Assembly (NCBI GenBank): GCA_002296225.1 | Contig: DBHR01000087.1 | Span: 12,976-76,975, forward strand | Length of the DNA: 64,000 nt | Source: Acidobacteria bacterium UBA823 | Lineage (GTDB): Bacteria; Acidobacteriota; Vicinamibacteria; Vicinamibacterales; UBA823 | Direction: 5' to 3' | Shown: piece after piece, positions 9,608 through 29,087 of the stretch | Position numbering within the stretch: the stretch's first letter is position 1 | Layout of the letters: every line of letters starts with the position of its first letter | Notes under the pieces: generated by a model | The model's input: only the letters and a program-made list of their open reading frames with translations | Told to the model about the DNA's origin: nothing | The model's database searches: none | Made by a program: the position numbers and the translations under genes

Positions 9608-10345
9608 CTACTTCCACGTCACCTCCATGCCGAAGAAGTGATCGAAAATTCGCCGGGTCGGGTTGTTGCGCGCGTCGTTTTCGGGACTCCGAATGAAAAA
9701 ATCGATCTGCTGGGTAGCCGGATTGACCGCGCCGGCCGGTGAGCGCTTATCCACCAAGGGGTAGTTCACCGCGAGTGTCTCGCGGTCACGCATCCCCTGC
9801 GTGATCATGAAGTGCATCTGGTAGTCCTCATACAGAGTCTCCCCGTTGAGGGTGGCGTGGCCAAACCCCCAGCCAGCCAAGAAAATGAAGGTCTTCGGCC
9901 AGTTCGTGTCGCCGCAGCCGGAATCGCCGTGCTCGTAGATGGACGCTGCGATGCCGCCGTCCTGGCAGGGGCTGAATTCATTAAACCGGTCAATTTCGAG
10001 TACCAGCTCCCCATCAGTTAACTGCAGCCGAGCAACGAATGTGCCCGTATTCTGGATTTCGTTGACGTCAATCTCGACCGTGCCGTCGACCGCGTGCACA
10101 TCCGATGCGTCGTTGTCGATATGGTCCCATCCCGACGGGTCGTCGAGGCGACCGACCTGGTAGAGCCGCGATGCCGATAGCACCCAGTGGCCGTCGTATA
10201 GGTCGTGTTGTTCGGGCGCATAGAAACCAACCTCAGCGCCAGGCTGCTGGCGGGGCGTCGACTGCGCAGAGGCCACCCCTCCCACCGTCATCACCAATAT
10301 CGTGAAGGGCGCTAGTAACATCCCGCGTATTGTCGTTGGAAGCAT
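9608..10345 (-). CDS. secreted hypothetical protein
   Basis: Signal peptide MLPTTIRGMLLAPFTILVMTVGGVASAQ. I recognised no family motif. It is co-directional with the next gene, 31 nt away. Confidence 0.6.
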   Translation of the reverse strand: MLPTTIRGMLLAPFTILVMTVGGVASAQSTPRQQPGAEVGFYAPEQHDLYDGHWVLSASRLYQVGRLDDPSGWDHIDNDASDVHAVDGTVEIDVNEIQNTGTFVARLQLTDGELVLEIDRFNEFSPCQDGGIAASIYEHGDSGCGDTNWPKTFIFLAGWGFGHATLNGETLYEDYQMHFMITQGMRDRETLAVNYPLVDKRSPAGAVNPATQQIDFFIRSPENDARNNPTRRIFDHFFGMEVTWK

Positions 10346-10376
10346 GCGTGATCCCTTTCTTAAAGTGTGGCGAGGC

Positions 10377-18889: not shown

Positions 18890-19579
18890 TCACGAACGCT
18901 TCTGACCCTCGAGCAACAGCGCCAGCGCCTCGTTGAGCGACGCCGTCGCCCGCGCCTCGAGCGCCCGCGCTAAAAATCCGGTCAAGTTGGCGACGGCAAA
19001 GCTACTCCCTTTCAGGTTACGCGACGGAGACACTCCAGGAATCGGCCTCGGGAACCCGGAGGCGGATAAGACTACCGCGCCGTTCTGCCGGGTCCACCGA
19101 TACTGATCGCGAGGACAGTCCCAGTCCAAAGCGACCGGCACGACACCGGGCAGGCTACCGGGTAGCCACTGCGTCTGTCCGTCGGCGGCCGCCGAGACGA
19201 TCAGTGCGCCGTTCGTGGCTGCACGGTCCACGGTTTCGCGCAGTAGATCAGCGTGGGCGGCATTCGCCATGCCGAGGCTGAGATTGATCAGGCGGGCGCC
19301 CGACCTAGCCGCCCAGTCGATCGCCGCCACCAGCGCCTCGGTACTCGTCGAGAGCTCCCGGTCGAACACCTTAACGGCGTAAATGACACTTCCCGGGGCT
19401 TTTTCTCGGATAGCCGCTGCCACTGCCGTGCCGTGACCAAGGCGGTCAATAAAGTCTGGGTGTTCGGTGCCGTCGGCTGCGATCCCGACGCCTCCGGCGA
19501 CACGGCCAACGTGCGGGTGATCGGGATGCACGCCGCTGTCAACAACGGCTACACGCACGGGAACAAGGTCACTCATCAC
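18890..19579 (-). CDS. qhpE: small subtilisin-like serine protease, QhpE-like (gamma-leader peptidase)
   Basis: Asp/His/Ser triad motifs VVDSGV, GHGTAVA and GSSFAVANLTG in only 229 aa. It overlaps the upstream ABC exporter gene by 4 nt and lies within the qhp cluster. Confidence 0.8.
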   Translation of the reverse strand: MMSDLVPVRVAVVDSGVHPDHPHVGRVAGGVGIAADGTEHPDFIDRLGHGTAVAAAIREKAPGSVIYAVKVFDRELSTSTEALVAAIDWAARSGARLINLSLGMANAAHADLLRETVDRAATNGALIVSAAADGQTQWLPGSLPGVVPVALDWDCPRDQYRWTRQNGAVVLSASGFPRPIPGVSPSRNLKGSSFAVANLTGFLARALEARATASLNEALALLLEGQKRS

Positions 19580-21318
19580 GATTCCGTAGCGCCCACACCT
19601 GAGCCGGTGTCGAACAAGCGGGCAAACGCACCGCCGCGAGCCATCAGTTCAGATGGCGAGCCCTGCTCGACCACATTCGCGCCATCGAGCACAATCACCC
19701 GATCAGCCTGCCGCGCAAGCTCTAGCCGATGGGACACAACGATCGTCGTCCGGGCGCGCATGAGCACCTCATACCCCGTCATCACCTGCCGAGCCGTCGC
19801 GGGGTCGAGCGATGCGGTGGGCTCATCCAGTATCAGAACGGCCGGCGCCATTAGGAATGCCCGAGCGATCGCGACCCGCTGCCGCTCACCGGCCGACAGC
19901 GCCCGACCTCGCTCTCCGACTTGGGTGGCGTAACCCTCGGGCAGTCCGGCGACGAAGCCCTCAAGACCGGCCGCGCGCACGGCGGCTGCCAGATCCTCAT
20001 CGGTCGCCTCCGGCCGGGCGTATCGAAGGTTCTCGGATAGTGTCGCGTGAAAAAGAAACGGCTCTTGATCGACAAGGGCAATGTGACGGCGGACCTCACG
20101 GAGTGGAATCTCGCGGAGATCCCGGCCGTCCAGCAACACCCGGCCCTGGTCCGGGTCAATGAGCCGAAGTAAGAGATCGGTCAACGTCGACTTCCCACTG
20201 CCACTGGGACCCACGACAACCAGCATCTCGCCCGGCGCAACGTCCATCGACACGTCCTCAAGCGACGGTTCCCCGCGATCGAAGGACACGGTAACGTGCT
20301 CCATTGTCACCCGACCGCGCACCTGGTCGAACGTGACGCCGCCGGGCGGGTCCACGACCTCCACGTTAGCGTCTAGAAGTTCGTGCACGCGTCCTAGCGA
20401 AACCTTGGCCGTAGCCAGGCTCGCATAGAGTCCCATCAACGCCTGCAGGGGTGGGAGGACGCGCGCTTGGTAGGCCATAACCGCGACCAACGTCCCCATC
20501 GTGACCGTGCCGTCAATGACTCGGCTGCCGCCGTACAGAAAGACGATCGCCGTGCTTCCCGAGAGAATGAGGCCGGGCAATCCACCCGACAGGTACGTGA
20601 CCCACTGCATTGACATGAGCGCGTCCACGAACGCATCGTTGCGCTGTCGAAAGCGGTCGACCTCTCGCGTTTGAGCATTTGACGTCACGACCAGCTTCAT
20701 GCCCTGGATCGTTTCGATCAGAAAGCTTCCAATATCCGCACTGCGCGCGCGGACGGTTCGGACCCGTCCCTCCAGCCGCCGCCGATAGCGCACGAGTGCC
20801 CAGAGGCTCGGCGGCAGCAGGCACAGGCTCACGACGAAGAGTCGCACGTCAAGCCAGATCAGCATACCGAGCGAACCAACTAGAAAGATTACGTTGCCGA
20901 GTGTGGCGAGCACTGCCTCGGACGCGACTCGCTGAATTTCGCCGATGTCGTTGTTGATGCGCGACATGATGTCGCCAAGCCGCGTTTGCGCGTAAAACCG
21001 TGGTGACAAGCACTGCAGGTGCCGATAGAGCGCCAAGCGCATGTCGAACAAAATCGCGGCCGACACACGCGTATACCTCAACCCACTCACAATGTTGAGC
21101 GCAAAGCTCGCGATTGTGATCAGCACGAACGTGAGCACGATTCGCCGAAGTACACCGCCGTCACCCCCCAGCAACGCACTGTCGACCAAGCTGCGCGACA
21201 GATACGGCACGTAGAGCGCTAGGCCCGTGCTCGTCAAGCTGATTACGAGAACGAGCAGCAGTCGGTGCCAATACGGCACCACATACGCCAGCGCGCGGTG
21301 AAACTGGGGATCTAGCAA
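19576..21318 (-). CDS. qhpF: ABC exporter (fused TMD-NBD), QhpF-like
   Basis: Six-TM exporter domain followed by Walker A GPSGSGKST, LSAGERQRVAIARAF and ILDEPTASLD. TTG start. It sits between the second qhpB copy and qhpE. Confidence 0.85.
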   Translation of the reverse strand: MLDPQFHRALAYVVPYWHRLLLVLVISLTSTGLALYVPYLSRSLVDSALLGGDGGVLRRIVLTFVLITIASFALNIVSGLRYTRVSAAILFDMRLALYRHLQCLSPRFYAQTRLGDIMSRINNDIGEIQRVASEAVLATLGNVIFLVGSLGMLIWLDVRLFVVSLCLLPPSLWALVRYRRRLEGRVRTVRARSADIGSFLIETIQGMKLVVTSNAQTREVDRFRQRNDAFVDALMSMQWVTYLSGGLPGLILSGSTAIVFLYGGSRVIDGTVTMGTLVAVMAYQARVLPPLQALMGLYASLATAKVSLGRVHELLDANVEVVDPPGGVTFDQVRGRVTMEHVTVSFDRGEPSLEDVSMDVAPGEMLVVVGPSGSGKSTLTDLLLRLIDPDQGRVLLDGRDLREIPLREVRRHIALVDQEPFLFHATLSENLRYARPEATDEDLAAAVRAAGLEGFVAGLPEGYATQVGERGRALSAGERQRVAIARAFLMAPAVLILDEPTASLDPATARQVMTGYEVLMRARTTIVVSHRLELARQADRVIVLDGANVVEQGSPSELMARGGAFARLFDTGSGVGATES

Positions 21319-21347: not shown

Positions 21348-22454
21348 TCACTCTGGCGGCATGACGATCAAATCGGTCGTGGCGTCGGCTTCGAGGTCAA
21401 GCGTACGCAAGTATCGGAACGTGTCGGACTCGTAAATGTCGATCGTTTGGCCAGCCTGATAAACATACAGCAATTGACCGTTCGTGCTCGGCTTCACCCG
21501 CATCCTTGGCCGACCCGCAAACCGTAGCCTAGCGTCGAGTCGGCGGTTCTCTAAATCGAATGCCCAGAACTCATAATGCCCGATTTCCTGGACGAGTCCG
21601 TAGGCCTTTGTTCGGTCCGCCGTCATGTTAAAACTAACCTTGGTCGCCGGCCCGAGCGTGTAGAAGTACTCGACTCTTTTCTCGTTGAGATTGACACGCG
21701 CAACGCCCATCTGCCGACCATCCCGCACAGGTGACCCCACCGTGAAGAGGCCCGTATAAAACCCGAATTCTTCGTTGAGCCCTCCGCTAAAGCCGAAGCG
21801 CATCGGGCCGAGACCAGGCTCAAGCGGTTCCGAGAGATCCCATCGATCGACTTCAGTGAAATCGGCCGTTTCGTAGATCACGACTTGGTCGAGAAAGAAG
21901 TACAGAAGTGAACCGTCGGGCGAAAACAACATATTGAGCTGCTGCTGCTGCTCGCCGTCCGGCCAGGGAATAGCCCGCATGAACTCGTGCGTTGACAGGT
22001 CGTACTGTGACAGCTCATGTGAATCAATCTCAAACCGGTCGACCAGCTTTGTCGATGAGCGCGTCAAGAGGATGACGTAGCGTTCCTCGGGATCAACGGC
22101 GAAACTTTCGATTCGAGTCCTCGTGCTCCCCTGGCTAAGCGTGAGCGTGTCGAGCGTCGAACGGGTGGCGATGTCAATGACCTCAAAATACTCTGCCGTC
22201 ATGTCGTTCAAGTAGAACCGCTGCTGGTCCGTAGAAAGCGTTAGGTTCCTCGGCATCCCGGACGTCACCTGAATCTCGTCGACCACCTGCTCGGTAGCCT
22301 CGTCGATGACGTAGATTTTGTGCGCGTATCCGCCAATGTAGAGCGTGCTGTTTCCGCCCGTTAGGCGCGTGTCTTCCTTGCCCTGCGCCTGCACCGCCGC
22401 GCTGGCGAGCCCGAAGAGCGCAATCAGGCACGCCATCCGAATCAGATACACCAT
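21348..22454 (-). CDS. qhpB: QHNDH beta subunit-like beta-propeller, copy 2
   Basis: Signal peptide MVYLIRMACLIALFGLASAAVQAQ. It is homologous along its whole length to the ORF at 22832-23944. I chose the ATG at 22454 because it gives a 22-nt gap after the gamma copy, mirroring the 24-nt gap in copy 1. The ORF is open to 22496. Confidence 0.8.
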   Translation of the reverse strand: MVYLIRMACLIALFGLASAAVQAQGKEDTRLTGGNSTLYIGGYAHKIYVIDEATEQVVDEIQVTSGMPRNLTLSTDQQRFYLNDMTAEYFEVIDIATRSTLDTLTLSQGSTRTRIESFAVDPEERYVILLTRSSTKLVDRFEIDSHELSQYDLSTHEFMRAIPWPDGEQQQQLNMLFSPDGSLLYFFLDQVVIYETADFTEVDRWDLSEPLEPGLGPMRFGFSGGLNEEFGFYTGLFTVGSPVRDGRQMGVARVNLNEKRVEYFYTLGPATKVSFNMTADRTKAYGLVQEIGHYEFWAFDLENRRLDARLRFAGRPRMRVKPSTNGQLLYVYQAGQTIDIYESDTFRYLRTLDLEADATTDLIVMPPE

Positions 22455-22476
22455 GACATTCTTCGAGGCTCGGCGA

Positions 22477-22818
22477 TCAGGGGAAGATAAGGTCAATTTT
22501 CCGCCAGTCCTTTTGGGCTGACGCGCAGGTAGCCGTCCAATCCGGCGCGTGGTTTAATTGGTCCGGCACCTGAGCGGGCCAGAAACACCCAAGATGACAG
22601 TCGAACAGATCCCGCTCGACCGGAGAACAAAGTCCCGCGGTGCCACCTTCAATGTCGACCTCCCACCCAGGGAAGAAGACGAACGAGCATCCTAGCGGAA
22701 TGTGCGCATCTGGCCGTAGCGCCCTCTGTTGCAGCGCCACAACGTCCCGTCCGGCCTCAGCTTCGACATGCTGTTTGACGCGGTCGGCCTTCTGATTAAC
22801 TGGCTTGAGATGTTTCAT
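22477..22818 (-). CDS. qhpC: QHNDH gamma subunit precursor (CTQ and thioether-crosslinked peptide), copy 2
   Basis: Length 113 aa. The core GCSFVFFPGWEVD ... GLCSPVERD ... DCHLGCFWPAQVPD ... KDWRKIDLIFP matches the spacing I recall for P. denitrificans QhpC (Cys7-Glu16, Cys27-Asp33, Cys37/Trp43 CTQ, Cys41-Asp49). Confidence 0.85.
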   Translation of the reverse strand: MKHLKPVNQKADRVKQHVEAEAGRDVVALQQRALRPDAHIPLGCSFVFFPGWEVDIEGGTAGLCSPVERDLFDCHLGCFWPAQVPDQLNHAPDWTATCASAQKDWRKIDLIFP

Positions 22819-22831
22819 CGGTCACTCGTCC

Positions 22832-23944
22832 TTAGTTGGGCGGAATGACGAACAGATTCGTCCTTTGGTCCGCTTCGAGCTCAAGTGTTCGCAGGTATCG
22901 GTAGGTCCCGGCTTCGTAGACGTCGATCGTTTCTCCAGCGTAATAGAGATACAGTAGCTGGCCGTTCGAACTTGGCTTCAAGAGCAACCGCGGCCGGCCG
23001 TGGAATCGCTGCCGCGGGCCCAAGCGCCGATTCTCCAGGTCGAAGGACCAGAATTCAGTTTGACCGTACTCCTTTGCGAGGCCATAGGCCATCGTCCGGT
23101 CCGGTGTTAGGTTGAAACTGACTCCGATCGCCGGTCCGAGGGTGTAGAAGTAGTCGATCTTCTTCTCAGTGAGGTTCACTCGCGCCACGCCCATTTGCCG
23201 TCCGTCCCGAACCGGCGATTGGACAGTGAACAGGCCGGTGTATAACCCGGGTTCTTCGTTGATCAGATCACGAAAGCCGAATTGTATCCGGCCGAGCCCA
23301 GGTTCCAATGGCTGCGACAGGTCCCAGCGATCCACTTCGGTGAAATTAGTTGTTTCGTAGATAATGATTTCATCGAGGAAGAAATAAAGCAGCGATCCAT
23401 CAGGTGAAAAAACCATGTTGAGGGGTGCCCGACCGGGTCGTCGAGACGTCGGCCACGGAATGTCCCGCACAATCTCATGGGCACCGAGGTCGTACTGCAC
23501 GAGCCGCATTGGGTCAATTTCGAAGCGGTCGACGAGCTTCGTCGTCGCCCAGGTCTGGATGATGAGATAGCGCTCCTTCGGGTCTATCTCAAAGTTGCGA
23601 ATACGGACCTTCTTACTCCCATCGCTCAGTGTGAACGCATCGAGTGTCGAACGAGATGCAATATCGATGATCTCGATATGTTCCATCGTTGTATCGTAGA
23701 GGTAGAAACGCTCGCGGTCAGCCGATAGCGTCATGACTCTTGGAGTCCCGGTACTGACCCGGATTTCGTCCACGACTTGTTCAGTGGCTTCGTCGATGAC
23801 GTAGATCTTCTGGGCGAAGCCACCTATGTAAAGCGTGCCGTTGCCGCCTGTCAGTTGTGAGCCGTTCTGGGCGCTAGCCGGTGCATTCAGGAACGCAAAC
23901 ACGCAAGCGATGATTACCGGACGAAAATATCGCATGGCCGTCAC
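22832..23944 (-). CDS. qhpB: QHNDH beta subunit-like beta-propeller, copy 1
   Basis: Signal peptide ending in APASAQ. Blocks shared with copy 2 include KIYVIDEATEQVVDEI, VDRFEID, FSPDGSLLYFFLD, FTEVDRWDLS, SPVRDGRQMGVARVNL and FDLENRRL. Confidence 0.8.
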   Translation of the reverse strand: MTAMRYFRPVIIACVFAFLNAPASAQNGSQLTGGNGTLYIGGFAQKIYVIDEATEQVVDEIRVSTGTPRVMTLSADRERFYLYDTTMEHIEIIDIASRSTLDAFTLSDGSKKVRIRNFEIDPKERYLIIQTWATTKLVDRFEIDPMRLVQYDLGAHEIVRDIPWPTSRRPGRAPLNMVFSPDGSLLYFFLDEIIIYETTNFTEVDRWDLSQPLEPGLGRIQFGFRDLINEEPGLYTGLFTVQSPVRDGRQMGVARVNLTEKKIDYFYTLGPAIGVSFNLTPDRTMAYGLAKEYGQTEFWSFDLENRRLGPRQRFHGRPRLLLKPSSNGQLLYLYYAGETIDVYEAGTYRYLRTLELEADQRTNLFVIPPN

Positions 23945-23968
23945 CAGAGATCAGTTTCCGGATCGAAG

Positions 23969-24310
23969 TCAGGGGAAGATGAGATCGACCTTCCGCCAAT
24001 CCTTTTGAGCTGCCGCGCAGGTAGCCGTCCAATCTGGCGCGTGGTTTAGCTCGTCTGGCACCTGCGCCGGCCAGAAACACCCCGCGTAACAGTCGAACAG
24101 GTCTCGCTCGATTGGAGAACAGAGTCCAGCAGTGCCACCTTCGATATCCACTTCCCACCCCGGTGAGAAGACGAACGAGCACCCAAGCGGCACGTGTATG
24201 CCTGGCCGCAGCGGGCCCTGCTGTAACGCCACTACGTCACGTTGGTCGGTGGCTTCGAGGTGGTGCCGGACTCGCTCGGCTTTTTGATTAACTGGTTTGA
24301 GATGCTTCAT
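23969..24310 (-). CDS. qhpC: QHNDH gamma subunit precursor, copy 1
   Basis: Length 113 aa, with the same length and crosslink spacing as copy 2. It differs from copy 2 at 19 of 113 positions by my manual alignment. The start overlaps the 3' end of qhpD by 23 nt. Confidence 0.85.
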   Translation of the reverse strand: MKHLKPVNQKAERVRHHLEATDQRDVVALQQGPLRPGIHVPLGCSFVFSPGWEVDIEGGTAGLCSPIERDLFDCYAGCFWPAQVPDELNHAPDWTATCAAAQKDWRKVDLIFP

Positions 24311-25745
24311 CCGTCATTCGTCCTTCGAAACGCGAAAGGTACACCGGATTCCGCTCGGCGAGCTCGCCGTAAATGCGGAGGCAGATGTCGGTCCACTCAC
24401 GGATCCAGTCGCAGTAGTGCAGATTCGGATGGTCAGTCGTCCCGTACCGCGTCTGTGCTTCATGGTAGCAACCACCGGCGCAGAGCGGACGCGCCCAGCA
24501 CGTCCGGCAATCGGTCTTGTGCTCTATATGATGCCGGTCAAGAAATTCGGCTTGCCGCGCCCGGTCGATGCCGTCATCGACCGTTCCCAGCGCGTGATCG
24601 GGGGACCCGGCAAACCGGTGGCACAACGCGACCTGACCGTCGGTGGCAACCCCCATCAGGCCGAGTCCGGCCCCGCACGGGTAGGCCTTGCTGGCCCCCT
24701 TGTGAATCTCCTCTAGTGTGTCCTTGACATTCGCAAACCCGTGGTGCCGGCTCTCCAACGCGTGCGCGAGGAATTCCTTCGCCAGCGCCTGAAACTGGCC
24801 GAGCATCTTGTCGAACCCGCCGTCCTCAATTGCGTATTGCCGGTCCGGCGACGTGGTCACGGGTGCGAAGCCCACCTCGCGGAAGCCAACCTCCTCGGTG
24901 AGGTGACGAAAAATTCGTTGAGCGTCCAACGTCTGCGACGTCAATGTCACACGGGCGCCGATTGGCTTAGCCGTGTGACGCCGCAGCAGTTCCCGGATCT
25001 TCGGCATCGCCACGTCGTAGCTGCCCGCACCGCTGTGAAAAACGCGGAACTTGTCCTGCATATCCTGCGGACCGTCGATCGAAATCGTGACGGCGATGTC
25101 ATTCTCGATCAAGAAGTCAATGACGTCTGGTTGGAGCAGCGTCCCGTTCGTCGTCAGATTGAACTCGACCCGCTTACCGACCTCGGTTGCGCGCTGCCGT
25201 GCGTAGGGAATCGCGACCCTAAGAACGGGCATGTTCAGCAGCGTCTCGCCGCCGAACAAGGTCATGTGCACGACCTTGTTCTGGCCGGCCTCACGGAACA
25301 TGAAGTCGACACTCTGCTTGGCCGTCTCCTCCGACATGAACTTCGGCTGCGTTCCGTTGGCCGTGTCGACGAGTTTGTCTTCTCCATATTCGTAGCAGTA
25401 GGTGCACGCAAGGTTACATTGGTTGGTGACGTTCATCACCATCGTCGTCAGCGGGAACGGCTCGAGCGGTATCACCTTCGGGATTAACTGTGGAGCCTCG
25501 TTCACAGGCACGATGGCTTGAACACGCCGGAGTTCGTCCAGCCCCTCGTCGAGTTCGGCTACGGACCAACGCGTTCCGAGCACCGCCAGGATCTCTTCGC
25601 GGGCGCGAGGTTCGGTATCCAGTAACTCGAGAATTGTCCGGCTCACGTCATCAAGCGCAAAAATCGCCGCACTACGAAGATAAAGAAACGCCTTCCCCGC
25701 TGCGTCGAACCGATGCAGATGCTGAGTACGGAAACGTGCTGCCAT
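24288..25745 (-). CDS. qhpD: radical SAM/SPASM maturase, QhpD-like
   Basis: CX3CX2C motif NQCNLACTYCYE and a C-terminal SPASM-type Cys cluster (AYPCGAG ... CHRF ... CRTCWARPLCAGGCYHE). The ATG directly abuts the qhpA stop. Confidence 0.9.
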   Translation of the reverse strand: MAARFRTQHLHRFDAAGKAFLYLRSAAIFALDDVSRTILELLDTEPRAREEILAVLGTRWSVAELDEGLDELRRVQAIVPVNEAPQLIPKVIPLEPFPLTTMVMNVTNQCNLACTYCYEYGEDKLVDTANGTQPKFMSEETAKQSVDFMFREAGQNKVVHMTLFGGETLLNMPVLRVAIPYARQRATEVGKRVEFNLTTNGTLLQPDVIDFLIENDIAVTISIDGPQDMQDKFRVFHSGAGSYDVAMPKIRELLRRHTAKPIGARVTLTSQTLDAQRIFRHLTEEVGFREVGFAPVTTSPDRQYAIEDGGFDKMLGQFQALAKEFLAHALESRHHGFANVKDTLEEIHKGASKAYPCGAGLGLMGVATDGQVALCHRFAGSPDHALGTVDDGIDRARQAEFLDRHHIEHKTDCRTCWARPLCAGGCYHEAQTRYGTTDHPNLHYCDWIREWTDICLRIYGELAERNPVYLSRFEGRMTDEASQTS

Positions 25746-27443
25746 CTAGCGCCCCATCTCCCACGAATCCCACCGCATGTAAACCGGAACGGTAACTACT
25801 AGGTGGGCGCGCGCCCTGAGCGGCATGGCAGCACCTTCCGGCGTGAACGTGGCCACGACCCAGACGTCACCGATGTTGTTTCGGTTGCCGACCCGTTCGG
25901 GATTCGGCCCATCCACGGCCGGTGTAAACAATCCGGTTTGGTCGAGTGATCCGACGAATCTCAGGTCTTCATCGCCGTAGGTGGCAGAGTATTCCTCAAG
26001 ATTCCAGGTGGGTTCGACGGCGCCGAGGTTCAAATCATCATCCGTGCGCGGTTTGCCGTCTGGGCCATCGTGCCATGCCACGGCATCAAACTGCTCATAC
26101 TGCTTTGGCACGATGACGCCGCCCACACGCGCCATCCCCCGCAAGGGCTCAACGGCAACCCGGTCCACTTGGTCATACACCACCAATGCCCGCTCGGCTA
26201 TGGCTCGACCCACGAAAACGTCCCTAGCACCGACGCTCGCTCCGTCCGACACAGCGACCCGAACAGTGGCCGCACCAGGCGTGACACTGACGACCTCCAA
26301 CACCTGGATTCCGGCGCCAAGATCGACGTCCGCAGGCACCAACTCTGCGGGAAGATTGTCGCCGTAGATGCTCACCACTTGACCGTTGGTCGACGTGCGC
26401 ACAGCCCGAGGATGGACGCCAGAAATCACCGGCGCCTCGTTGACGCGTGTGAGCGTCACGGCGAGGCCGATTTCATCGAACGCACCTCGAAACCACCGCC
26501 CAGAAATAGATCTCCAATCGCGCTCAACAAACATTACCTGGCGCCACTCGGTGTCACCGCCAACCACTTCAGATGACCCACGCCACTGAAACCCGGTGTA
26601 GACGATGGACCGACCCGTATGAGTCACCGACCGCCCGTCGCGTGCGTACACCAACGTCGCGTCGGTAGTGAACTCCACATCGCTGCCTTGCGCGGCGACG
26701 ACCGTCATCCGCCCGAATAAGGGACCGTTGCCAGAATGGTTCCCGGACACCGCCCAAGTCCCTTCGAGCTTCGGCGGACGGAGATTCGCCGACCACGCAG
26801 CCCACGCCGATGTCTGCAGTGGAAACACCTCGGCCAAATGGTCGATCGCCCGATTCATCGGATGTCGACGCTCTGGCGTCTCATTCGGAGCCGGAGGTTC
26901 GCGAACGACCATCCCGTCTTCGAGAAATCCTTGTCGATCAGCGAACGGATAATAGCCGCGGTGCATCGCCACCACCAGCGCCCACTCCTCCCTAGTGCGG
27001 CGTTGATTGAGGATCCGCCCCATCGAGTGGCATGCGCTGCACGTCGCCTCGGTGTCCCGGTCGGCCTCGTACTCGTACTCGATAAGCTCACGTTGGACCT
27101 CAAACGCGCCGTCTCGCGCCTCTTCCGGCGCGAGTCCAAGATGGTTCGAAAGATACCGCACGACCTCACGCGCTTCATCTAAATCGAGCACCACGTCATT
27201 CAAGCTAACCATGCGCTTGATCGTCTGTTGCCATCCTTCCGGCGTCGTCCGACGGTAGGAGATCCGAGATAGGATCTGCGGGTCGTCGGTTACATGACAA
27301 ACACCGCAAGCCTCAATGACTGTCGAGTTGTCGATCCGGATACCGGTTGTCTCCGTCCGGTCAACCTGACCGGCCGCGGCATAAACCGGGACCCAAGCCA
27401 TAAGCAGAAAGCCCAGCAGGGTGCGCATCGTCACGGCTACCAT
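25746..27443 (-). CDS. qhpA: QHNDH alpha subunit-like dihaem cytochrome c
   Basis: Two CXXCH motifs (CGVCH, CSACH) in the N-terminal region, then a long beta-rich region. Signal peptide MRTLLGFLLMAWVPVYAAAGQ. The start is uncertain (ATG at 27443 or 27428; ORF open to 27500). Confidence 0.8.
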   Translation of the reverse strand: MVAVTMRTLLGFLLMAWVPVYAAAGQVDRTETTGIRIDNSTVIEACGVCHVTDDPQILSRISYRRTTPEGWQQTIKRMVSLNDVVLDLDEAREVVRYLSNHLGLAPEEARDGAFEVQRELIEYEYEADRDTEATCSACHSMGRILNQRRTREEWALVVAMHRGYYPFADRQGFLEDGMVVREPPAPNETPERRHPMNRAIDHLAEVFPLQTSAWAAWSANLRPPKLEGTWAVSGNHSGNGPLFGRMTVVAAQGSDVEFTTDATLVYARDGRSVTHTGRSIVYTGFQWRGSSEVVGGDTEWRQVMFVERDWRSISGRWFRGAFDEIGLAVTLTRVNEAPVISGVHPRAVRTSTNGQVVSIYGDNLPAELVPADVDLGAGIQVLEVVSVTPGAATVRVAVSDGASVGARDVFVGRAIAERALVVYDQVDRVAVEPLRGMARVGGVIVPKQYEQFDAVAWHDGPDGKPRTDDDLNLGAVEPTWNLEEYSATYGDEDLRFVGSLDQTGLFTPAVDGPNPERVGNRNNIGDVWVVATFTPEGAAMPLRARAHLVVTVPVYMRWDSWEMGR

Positions 27444-27530
27444 AGTTCGAGAATACCTGAGGTGCCGCTTCTTTGTAACACAAGGGCCTGGCGAGAACAA
27501 TCGGGGGTTTCAGACTGCTTGAGAGTCTTC

Positions 27531-29087
27531 TTAGGTATTTCTCAGGGCCCCAGAGGCCAGCAAAAGCGACAGGGCGCCGAGGAAGTCTGGGAGGTTCACC
27601 TCGGAATACCGCTGGTTGTAGGCCTCGAACAGGTCGGGGACTTGGCGATGGTCACCTGCCATCCGAACCAACGCTGGCAGGTCGACGCCTCGGACGAACC
27701 TCAGGGCCACACGGCCCACGGTCGACATTTCGAGTCCCAAGCGTTCCTCAAGTACCACTTCCCGTCCAGCGATACCAGGCCAGCGTTCGACCTGTAGGCG
27801 GTCTCCGGGTGCCAGCGTGATCTCGGGCCAGACCTTCAGGTCAGCGAATGCCGCCTGCATCGCAGGGTCGAGACGGAGCGCATCTAGGTCGATCGCCGCG
27901 GGGGAACCGAACCCAAGGTCATCCTCGAGGTCGGATCGCCCCGTCCAAAATGGATGGTCATGTTTAGCGGCCACGTCACGGAAGTATTCCGCGGCCTGCA
28001 CCGCATAGCTCGAAAAGACCTCCGACTCGCGTGCGGTGTAAAACTCGCACGCTGCCTCGGCCATCTCGGGTTTCACCAAGCAGGTGTTGGTCACGATGGC
28101 CGCCATCCAGGCTGAAGCGATGGCCTTCTTTACCCCGAATGACGACAGAGGATCGATGAACGAGGCTGCGTCGCCAACTAATAGGAACGCAGGACCGGCG
28201 TAACGATCGGCTGAATACACCGACGCGTCACAGGCCCACGGTTCGGTAGTAAGCCGCGCGTGGTCCGTGAGGCGGGAGATCTGTCGTGTCTTCGCAAGTT
28301 CCCGCCGATAAGTCACTGCAAGCTGGCCACCCCGGTCCAAGTCGGTCTCGCGCGGATCAACCATGACGGTCAGATAGCGCCGCATTGCACTGACAGGAAC
28401 TGACCAGGCCCATCCGTCACGGTAGGCCTCCACAAGCGTGTGAGTCGGCTCGGCTAGGGACCATCCATCGGGCCGCTCCCACACGCCGGCGATCGCCAAC
28501 GTCGCCGGTGCCGAACCATAACGCCTGAAGCCCTGCCGAGCGATCACTCCCGCTCGGCCTGAGCAATCAAGCACGGCCCGCGCGCTGACGACAACCGGGT
28601 TGGCGTGTTCGCCACCGGCCATAACATGGACGGTTCCACCACCAAGCGACATTTCACCGGTATCGAACTCCACGCGTTTCACCGTGCCCTGGACGACGGT
28701 GACATTCTTGTTTTCAGCCTGCGTTCGTAATACTCGATCGAATTCTCGTCGGATGACCTGATACCCCAGCTCGCCATCCGTGAAGCGCTCTGACCTCAAC
28801 TCGTCACTGCCCCACCAAAACGTATTTCCCGTCGAGCGGAGAAACTTGGCCTTGTCGATGGCTTCTAATACGCCGATGGCGCGGAAAAGCTTCCGGCAGC
28901 TAGGTGGCAGTGATTCAGCCAGCGTCGGCGCCGTGTCCTCGCTCTTCGTCAAGAGCAGGACAGCGTGGCCCCACGCTGACAGCACGTTCGCAGCCGCAGC
29001 GCCAGCCGGCCCGCCGCCGACAATGACAACGTCCGAGGTGGAAGGTACGCGTAAGCGTGTCATCTTTGTGCCGGAACATCCCAGCAA
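27531..29087 (-). CDS. qhpG: FAD-dependent monooxygenase of tryptophan-halogenase fold, QhpG-like
   Basis: Dinucleotide fingerprint VVIVGGGPAGAAAANVL, the WxWxIP-like GWAWSVPV, and the GDAASFIDPLSSFGV motif. It is the first gene of the co-directional qhp cluster. An alternative ATG lies at 29063. Confidence 0.7.
   Translation of the reverse strand: MLGCSGTKMTRLRVPSTSDVVIVGGGPAGAAAANVLSAWGHAVLLLTKSEDTAPTLAESLPPSCRKLFRAIGVLEAIDKAKFLRSTGNTFWWGSDELRSERFTDGELGYQVIRREFDRVLRTQAENKNVTVVQGTVKRVEFDTGEMSLGGGTVHVMAGGEHANPVVVSARAVLDCSGRAGVIARQGFRRYGSAPATLAIAGVWERPDGWSLAEPTHTLVEAYRDGWAWSVPVSAMRRYLTVMVDPRETDLDRGGQLAVTYRRELAKTRQISRLTDHARLTTEPWACDASVYSADRYAGPAFLLVGDAASFIDPLSSFGVKKAIASAWMAAIVTNTCLVKPEMAEAACEFYTARESEVFSSYAVQAAEYFRDVAAKHDHPFWTGRSDLEDDLGFGSPAAIDLDALRLDPAMQAAFADLKVWPEITLAPGDRLQVERWPGIAGREVVLEERLGLEMSTVGRVALRFVRGVDLPALVRMAGDHRQVPDLFEAYNQRYSEVNLPDFLGALSLLLASGALRNT

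Follow-up and report, generated by a model that had tools for sequence, protein, structure and literature searches.

A qhp operon with two diverged gamma-beta modules and single genes for the alpha subunit and maturation proteins in Acidobacteria bacterium UBA823

Quinohemoprotein amine dehydrogenase (QHNDH) is encoded by the qhp operon, the canonical examples of which are those of Paracoccus denitrificans and Pseudomonas putida (structures 1JJU and 1JMX; PMC7876137). The gamma subunit is made as a precursor, QhpC; QhpD binds its leader and forms three thioethers, QhpG dihydroxylates Trp43 inside a QhpC-D-G complex, QhpE cuts off the leader, and QhpF exports the product for periplasmic assembly with the alpha and beta subunits (PMC7876137). 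QhpD, QhpE and QhpG are all reported to be single-turnover (PMC7876137). In the literature the operon is given as qhpABCDEFGR, and no description of duplicated gamma or beta genes was found there. A stretch of 64,000 nucleotides from Acidobacteria bacterium UBA823 (contig DBHR01000087.1, positions 12,976 to 76,975; hereafter 'the window') contained a qhp operon with the same gene set as the canonical operon. However, where the latter has one gamma and one beta gene, the window operon had two of each for its one alpha subunit and one maturation set, and no qhpR regulator adjoined it. The evidence presented below is best explained if the operon encodes two catalytic gamma-beta modules, and so two QHNDH isoforms sharing the alpha subunit and the maturation set; a probability of about 0.6 is attached to this reading.

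The operon comprised nine co-oriented, tightly packed genes on the minus strand, running from 29087 to 18890 in the order qhpG-A-D-C1-B1-C2-B2-F-E (window coordinates throughout):

27531..29087, minus strand: qhpG, flavin-dependent Trp dihydroxylase predicted to make the precursor of cysteine tryptophylquinone (CTQ); Trp_halogenase and FAD_binding_3 (Pfam) match
25746..27500, minus strand: qhpA, di-haem alpha subunit; TIGR03908, 464.6 bits (cut-off 274); matches to each of the four Pfam domains of the QHNDH alpha subunit
24288..25745, minus strand: qhpD, radical-SAM/SPASM thioether-forming maturase; TIGR03906, 556.4 bits (cut-off 453)
23969..24310, minus strand: qhpC1, gamma precursor 1, 113 amino acids; NF037958, 130 bits; conserved leader, diverged mature domain
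22832..23935, minus strand: qhpB1, beta propeller 1, of the clade II lineage described below, 367 amino acids from the likelier ATG at 23935
22819..22833, minus strand: junction of C1-B1 with C2-B2, a 15-nt stretch that starts within the qhpB1 stop codon, lies upstream of qhpC2 and bears a ribosome-binding site (AAGGACGAGTGACCG)
22477..22818, minus strand: qhpC2, gamma precursor 2, 113 amino acids; NF037958, 127.1 bits
21348..22454, minus strand: qhpB2, beta propeller 2, of clade I, 368 amino acids from the ATG at 22454
19576..21318, minus strand: qhpF, predicted ABC exporter of the processed gamma; ABC_membrane and ABC_tran; position conserved in all related loci
18890..19579, minus strand: qhpE, subtilisin-like leader peptidase; NF049966, 180.7 bits (cut-off 165)

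The original prediction had placed two gamma-beta units at 21348-24310, beside one copy each of qhpA, D, E, F and G; the single copies were borne out within the 64-kb window, and the open reading frames lay where they had been placed, save that qhpB2 more probably begins at ATG 22454. This start was used in the gene calls of other assemblies and matched by homologs, while the alternative TTG at 22496 overlaps qhpC2. For qhpB1, the open reading frame spanned 23944..22832, and ATG 23935 was preferred for the same reasons, being used by gene callers elsewhere and matched by homologs. The first codons that had been quoted for the two units, and the 13-nt junction at 22819-22831 that separates the qhpB1 stop from the qhpC2 start, were both correct on reading the sequence. 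The 15 nt before qhpC1 (24311-24325, AAGGACGAATGACGG) were homologous to AAGGACGAGTGACCG before qhpC2, with 13 of 15 bases identical, and likewise carry the ribosome-binding site. The 3' end of qhpD shared 23 nt with qhpC1, an overlap also known from canonical loci, and a scan of the operon for internal promoters and terminators produced matches no higher than expected from shuffled sequence. QhpA contained two CxxCH motifs. QhpG scored 238.4 bits against a cut-off of 240 for NF049967, which was by far its top-scoring family, and its position in the operon is conserved; in the gene calls of sister assemblies its start lay 24 nt further in, giving 510 amino acids.

Both gamma precursors were readily recognised (PF08992: C1 111 bits, C2 109 bits, cut-off 25; both also above the NF037958 cut-off of 50). 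They were identical at 94 of 113 residues, in agreement with the 19 differences predicted. Alignment to 1jju_C and 1jmx_G showed that window gamma numbering equals the P. denitrificans (Pd) residue plus 37, the leader being about 37 residues long as against 28 in the canonical precursor. The crosslink and CTQ positions were identical to the canonical ones: in Pd the thioethers are Cys7-Glu16, Cys27-Asp33 and Cys41-Asp49 and the CTQ pair is Cys37-Trp43, and C1 and C2 both retained Cys44/Glu53, Cys64/Asp70, Cys78/Asp86 and Cys74/Trp80. All 50 columns that were invariant across 30 homologs were retained in both copies; within the leader, M1, H3, L4, N8, K10, R13 and L29 were invariant across the 30 homologs, C1 and C2 included. 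One short ENA contig of 565 bp (P0001) carried a variant of C1 with a sole difference, Cys64 to Ser (window 24121-24119), which would remove the Cys27-Asp33 thioether; it was absent from all 12 assemblies covering qhpC1, and may reflect either an error of sequencing or genuine variation.

The divergence of C1 was one-sided and did not extend beyond the mature domain. C1 had 8-9 unique substitutions there and C2 had 0-1 (chi-square 5.4-9.0), the changes in C1 falling at Pd positions 1, 3, 12, 30, 38, 39, 50, 63 and 71; of these, H75Y and L76A correspond to Pd 38 and 39, directly after the CTQ residue Cys37. The mature domain of C2 (Pd residues 4-76, PLGC onward) was identical to the single gamma of two related marine loci, L092 and L002, and differed at 1 to 4 positions from the gammas of L001, L003 and L089 (one position in L001 and L003). 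In L001 and L003 (Tara genomes PBBF01 and PBHT01, approximately 10001-10348) ambiguous bases are translated as X within qhpC, which probably affects some of the identity figures. The best matches of C1 were the L092 gamma (85%), P0002 (84%) and C2 itself (83%), and its leader was more like the L092 leader than the C2 leader is. Apart from copies in the same species C1 had no close relatives: its synonymous divergence (dS) from other gammas was in no case below 1.08.

The two beta subunits were collinear, as had been predicted, with 236 of 363 residues identical (65%) and one small indel region. Unlike the gammas they fell far below the curated family model (TIGR03907, cut-off 223.2; B1 37.1 bits, B2 38.4 bits), they were only 16-18% identical to the solved betas, and a phmmer search of PDB sequences with B1 matched no QhpB. 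A profile of 48 beta sequences, however, matched 1jmx_B (3e-8) and 1jju_B (3e-6, full length). The AlphaFold2 models of B1 (pLDDT 88.6) and B2 (pLDDT 87.0) both had 1jju_B as top Foldseek match (B1: E = 2.2e-20, TM 0.69/0.75; B2: E = 2.0e-20, TM 0.71/0.76), and 1jmx_B as second-best, so that the canonical beta fold was the closest structure to either. Each was encoded directly 3' of a qhpC, and a beta homolog lay immediately 3' of qhpC in 78 of 80 related genome loci, qhpA being interposed in the other two (L016 and L032). On the profile, models and gene order, B1 and B2 can be placed as very diverged QhpB. By inspection, both had hydrophobic N-termini ending in A-x-A-like motifs (ASAQ, VQAQ), consistent with Sec signal peptides. 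The betas of this group, including the homologs P0121-P0240, score around 37 bits against 223, and such public records as name them have 'hypothetical protein' or 'YncE-like'. A large branch of QhpB thus lies outside the reach of the curated model, and the Acidobacteriota and Gemmatimonadota subunits, lying so far below its cut-off, constitute an annotation gap.

Comparison of the copies indicated that the arrangement is old and maintained. For the gamma pair, nonsynonymous divergence (dN) was 0.107 and dS 1.08 (dN/dS = 0.10, or 0.05 for the mature part; nucleotide identity 79%), while the beta pair had dN = 0.24 and a saturated dS of about 2.2 (dN/dS = 0.11; nucleotide identity 67%). Judged from these ratios, both modules are under purifying selection. 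An exact look-up of the B1 and B2 proteins identified 13 further contigs from ENA, NCBI and Logan, derived from different samples and at least two assemblers. The order C1-B1-C2-B2 was found in 12 of these 13, that is, in all that reached far enough upstream. Similarly, the exact B2 protein occurred in 45 indexed blocks, and at all nine places with upstream DNA the order was the same. The 13 related contigs were 99.78-99.93% identical to the window and contained no stop and no frameshift. Neither C1 nor C2 varied across 12 assemblies, whereas B1 had five synonymous and three nonsynonymous population variants and B2 had one of each, plus one in-frame indel of a Gln codon. This 3-nt polymorphism lies in a Gln run of qhpB2 (EQQQQ, window 21950-21952), in a loop region whose length also differs between B1 and B2. 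Because 12 other assemblies share the order at this identity, with no stop or frameshift, the two-module arrangement genuinely exists and is fixed in a marine population that has been sampled widely. The original view of an old, maintained duplication that is not an artefact of assembly was thereby upheld, and the check it proposed for disabling changes or elevated dN/dS found neither. That one copy is a pseudogene was ruled out by the intact reading frames in every assembly and by dN/dS of about 0.1, and a recent duplication was ruled out by dS of at least 1.08.

The arrangement was also unusual, as emerged from the survey of copy number that the original prediction had recommended. When one genome per GTDB species was scanned by pattern, more than 560 candidate loci emerged, of which the best 80 by similarity to C1 (60-79% identity; Acidobacteriota and Gemmatimonadota, with a few others) were checked by tblastn with all nine window proteins. 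None of these 80 had a second qhpC, each having exactly one; one qhpB was found in 79 of them by tblastn, while L076 was without a qhpB match. JGI metagenome contigs, scanned in this way, likewise gave more than 560 candidates, and there was no second qhpC among the best 80. On one short metagenome contig (L120:685-1711) qhpB was matched as two overlapping tblastn pieces, which probably reflects a frameshift or sequencing error and not a second beta. Proteobacteria were represented by 26 plasmid or chromid records only, and each of these had one qhpC. Six further loci from close relatives possessed a single module or less. Two modules on a single set of alpha and maturation genes are therefore rare, being absent from the approximately 190 other loci surveyed.

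If both modules function, their working can be proposed from the canonical pathway. All nine genes would be co-transcribed. The single QhpD would bind either precursor through its conserved leader, making the three Cys-to-Glu/Asp thioethers, QhpG would hydroxylate Trp80 of either gamma, and QhpE would then remove the leader before QhpF exports the product. In the periplasm each gamma would assemble with a beta exported by Sec and with the one di-haem alpha subunit, the pairing of cognate partners being suggested by gene adjacency. The two resulting isoforms would differ at 35% of beta residues and, in gamma, at positions adjoining the cofactor. In solved QHNDH structures the active site lies between gamma and beta, which fits a difference in substrate range, and the isoforms would probably differ in amine range or kinetics.

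Several points weigh against two working isoforms. QhpD, QhpE and QhpG are reportedly single-turnover and there is one set, which implies that the two gammas compete or are produced in unequal yield, and one module could be made in small amounts only. The differences between B1 and B2 were not clustered, affecting 31% of strand and 35% of non-strand positions; these proportions also ruled out a concentration of differences in loops. A role for B1 outside the gamma1 complex is conceivable from the gene contexts, because B1-type orphan betas without a gamma exist in other genomes. The single-copy count refers to the 64-kb window, and a second qhpA or maturation set may be present elsewhere in the genome. 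Finally, the organism is uncultured and the functional case is inferential.

The two units had been described as a tandem duplication of the gamma-beta module. The presence of two diverged units beside one alpha subunit and one maturation set was confirmed, but a simple duplicate origin was not, since B1 and B2 do not form a sister pair. The nearest marine Acidobacteriota loci (L092/L093, L177, L178 and L001-L004) had the order G-A-D-C-B-F-E, the same as the window except that C1-B1 was missing. In L092/L093, L177 and L178 the flanking genes also matched the window, with a metallophosphoesterase and an FAA hydrolase (the latter not in L178). The QhpD proteins of L092 and L001-L004 were 81-86% identical to that of the window; the mature gammas of L092 and L001-L003 were identical to C2 or differed from it at one position, and the betas of the nearest loci were orthologous to B2 (identity of B2 80% to the L092 beta and 69-74% to the L001-L004 betas). 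C2-B2 is thus orthologous to the one module that the nearest relatives possess, and appears to have been inherited vertically.

Neighbour-joining trees of the betas, from few sequences and with 300 bootstraps, separated B1 from B2. Clade I comprised B2 and the betas of canonical clusters (100% bootstrap). Clade II comprised B1, orphan betas from L081-L088 and L090, and the sole beta of L089 (99% bootstrap without L091, whose beta joined more loosely). Within it, B1 grouped with the betas of L090, L087, L081 and L089 at 90-99% bootstrap. That the modules arose by plain in-place duplication of one ancestral gamma-beta unit, the copies diverging in situ, is therefore improbable, although there are features to recommend it: the unit boundaries are tidy, with homologous 15-nt stretches before each gamma and the junction exactly at the B1 stop, and C1 is nearest to C2 and the L092 gamma (83-85%), which fits a local origin for the gamma. 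Against this, B1 and B2 were sisters in 0 of 300 bootstraps, and the dS of B1 was 2.2 to B2 but 0.39-0.58 to clade II. Nor could the grouping be attributed to a long branch. B1 was nearer to the outgroups than B2 (distances of 0.64-0.67 and 0.72-0.75, respectively) and departed from family-conserved sites in 3 instances, as against 11 for B2; the possibility that B1 is a fast-evolving copy made in place was ruled out on these grounds. If two modules were ancestral, moreover, one would have had to be lost on several separate occasions to account for L092, L001-L004, L177 and L178.

The affinities of B1 pointed instead to exchange. Its amino-acid identity to clade II betas was 79-84%, and its dS was 0.39-0.54 to the orphan betas (L090, L087 and L081) and 0.58 to the L089 beta, whereas genes A, D, F and E of the window and L089 were separated by dS of 1.3-1.65. 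The simplest reading of this discrepancy is lateral exchange, and it suggests that the clade II beta gene has moved among marine Acidobacteriota. Third-position G-C content (B1 0.66, B2 0.72) was uninformative as a transfer signal. Joint import of C1 and B1 from an L089-like donor was ruled out, because dS between C1 and the L089 gamma was 1.26 while that between B1 and the L089 beta was 0.58. With B1 close to clade II and C1 distant from all other gammas, the two appear to have separate histories: from these distances and the trees, C1 resembles a gamma paralog that is old and of local origin, whereas B1 resembles a beta from a foreign lineage. Module 1 would occupy the ancestral slot beside qhpD, combining a gamma paralog with an ancestral-type leader and a clade II beta.

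The clade II loci were themselves varied. The orphan betas of L081-L088 and L090 had no adjacent gamma or other qhp genes; those of L081-L086 adjoined cupin and HTH genes, and those of L087/L088 cupin and kinase genes. The orphan L087 and the canonical cluster L178 came from the same sample. The L090 beta was flanked only by a YncE-like propeller gene and kept the gamma-beta spacer without an upstream gamma. L091:8913-12622 (ENA ERZ25067264 ctg836555, 2.69 Mb, name ending in _c) represented, at the syntenic position, a qhp locus in decay, in which a 51-nt 3' remnant of qhpC preceded a clade II qhpB, qhpF and qhpE, while qhpG, qhpA, qhpD and most of qhpC had been lost. Because L090 keeps the spacer and L091 the gamma remnant, the clade II orphans evidently descend from gamma-linked genes. 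The remaining member, L089:498-3979 (ENA ERZ26167216 ctg478211), was a cluster of order A-A-D-C-B-F-E. Its only beta is of the B1 lineage, and it duplicates alpha where the window duplicates gamma and beta. Its tandem qhpA copies were nearly identical (dN = 0.008, dS = 0.058) on a long-read contig of only 2.44x coverage, and may represent either a recent duplication or a fault of the assembly. L089 and the clade II orphans show that structural qhp genes duplicate and move in this clade.

Such instability of the locus (the L091 remnant, the orphan betas and the two alpha genes of L089) could be taken to mean that the second module is transient, one module being an incoming replacement or a leftover nearing loss and only one being functionally needed. 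This is quite unlikely, given that neither module was damaged in any of the 13 related assemblies, which derive from many samples and were produced by several assemblers, that C1 and C2 were without polymorphism and the betas had few variants, and that pairwise dN/dS was about 0.1. Since its dS exceeds 1 to every other gamma, C1 has also been long retained.

There is similarly little likelihood that no second cognate enzyme exists, whether because the subunits mix, or because B1 acts apart from QHNDH and C1 is a spare or regulatory precursor. The nearest relatives of B1 do lack an adjacent gamma, and a standard gamma occurs with both a clade I beta (L092) and a clade II beta (L089), so that beta type does not dictate gamma type. 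Yet the L090 spacer and the L091 gamma remnant imply that clade II betas are gamma-linked by descent; C1 has kept every crosslinking and CTQ residue; and the mature domain of C1 has changed only in the genome with a second beta, which fits co-adaptation and not idleness. An assembly artefact, whether through collapse or expansion of a repeat or through the joining of two strains in a chimera, might be suspected of metagenome-derived sequence such as the window, but is close to inconceivable when the copies, at 67-79% DNA identity, are too diverged for repeat mis-assembly and the same order and junction recur in the 12 other contigs from separate samples, assemblers and databases.

Two QHNDH isoforms sharing one alpha subunit and one maturation set would contrast with the situation in DAIUKO01, a metagenome-assembled genome of the Vicinamibacterales that also has two gamma-beta pairs (L028 and L038), presumably for two isoenzymes. 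There, each pair has its own alpha subunit and QhpD at a separate locus, while the window has one alpha and maturation set in one operon. Separate, complete clusters of this kind are the ordinary route to isoenzymes. A further likeness is to multi-precursor clusters for ribosomally made peptides that are modified post-translationally (RiPPs), such as those of cyanobactins and prochlorosins, in which one leader-guided enzyme set acts on several precursors with conserved leaders and variable cores. The window differs from these in that the product is a cofactor-bearing enzyme subunit and each precursor has its own partner propeller gene. The two-module operon is a new arrangement within the well-known qhp system, then, and not a new kind of system.

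It is possible, and proposed here tentatively, that the gamma-beta pair serves as a cassette for specificity that can be exchanged while the chassis stays constant, with a laterally moving B1-type beta and a C1 re-adapted beside the cofactor giving, on one di-haem alpha subunit and one maturation set, two quinoprotein dehydrogenases. If so, QHNDH biogenesis would be a natural multi-precursor, RiPP-like system, and amine range would evolve through the swapping of beta and gamma. QHNDH is the model for how a ribosomal peptide becomes an enzyme subunit with a quinone cofactor, and each of its maturation enzymes is reported to act a single time, on a precursor from its own operon. The operon described here raises the questions of how far QhpD, QhpG, QhpE and QhpF tolerate changes in the precursor core, whether one alpha subunit can pair with different gamma-beta modules, and whether gamma and beta set the substrate range. 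Its relevance is to quinoprotein biogenesis and RiPP-like maturation, and it offers ready-made sequences for the engineering of amine dehydrogenases by module swapping.

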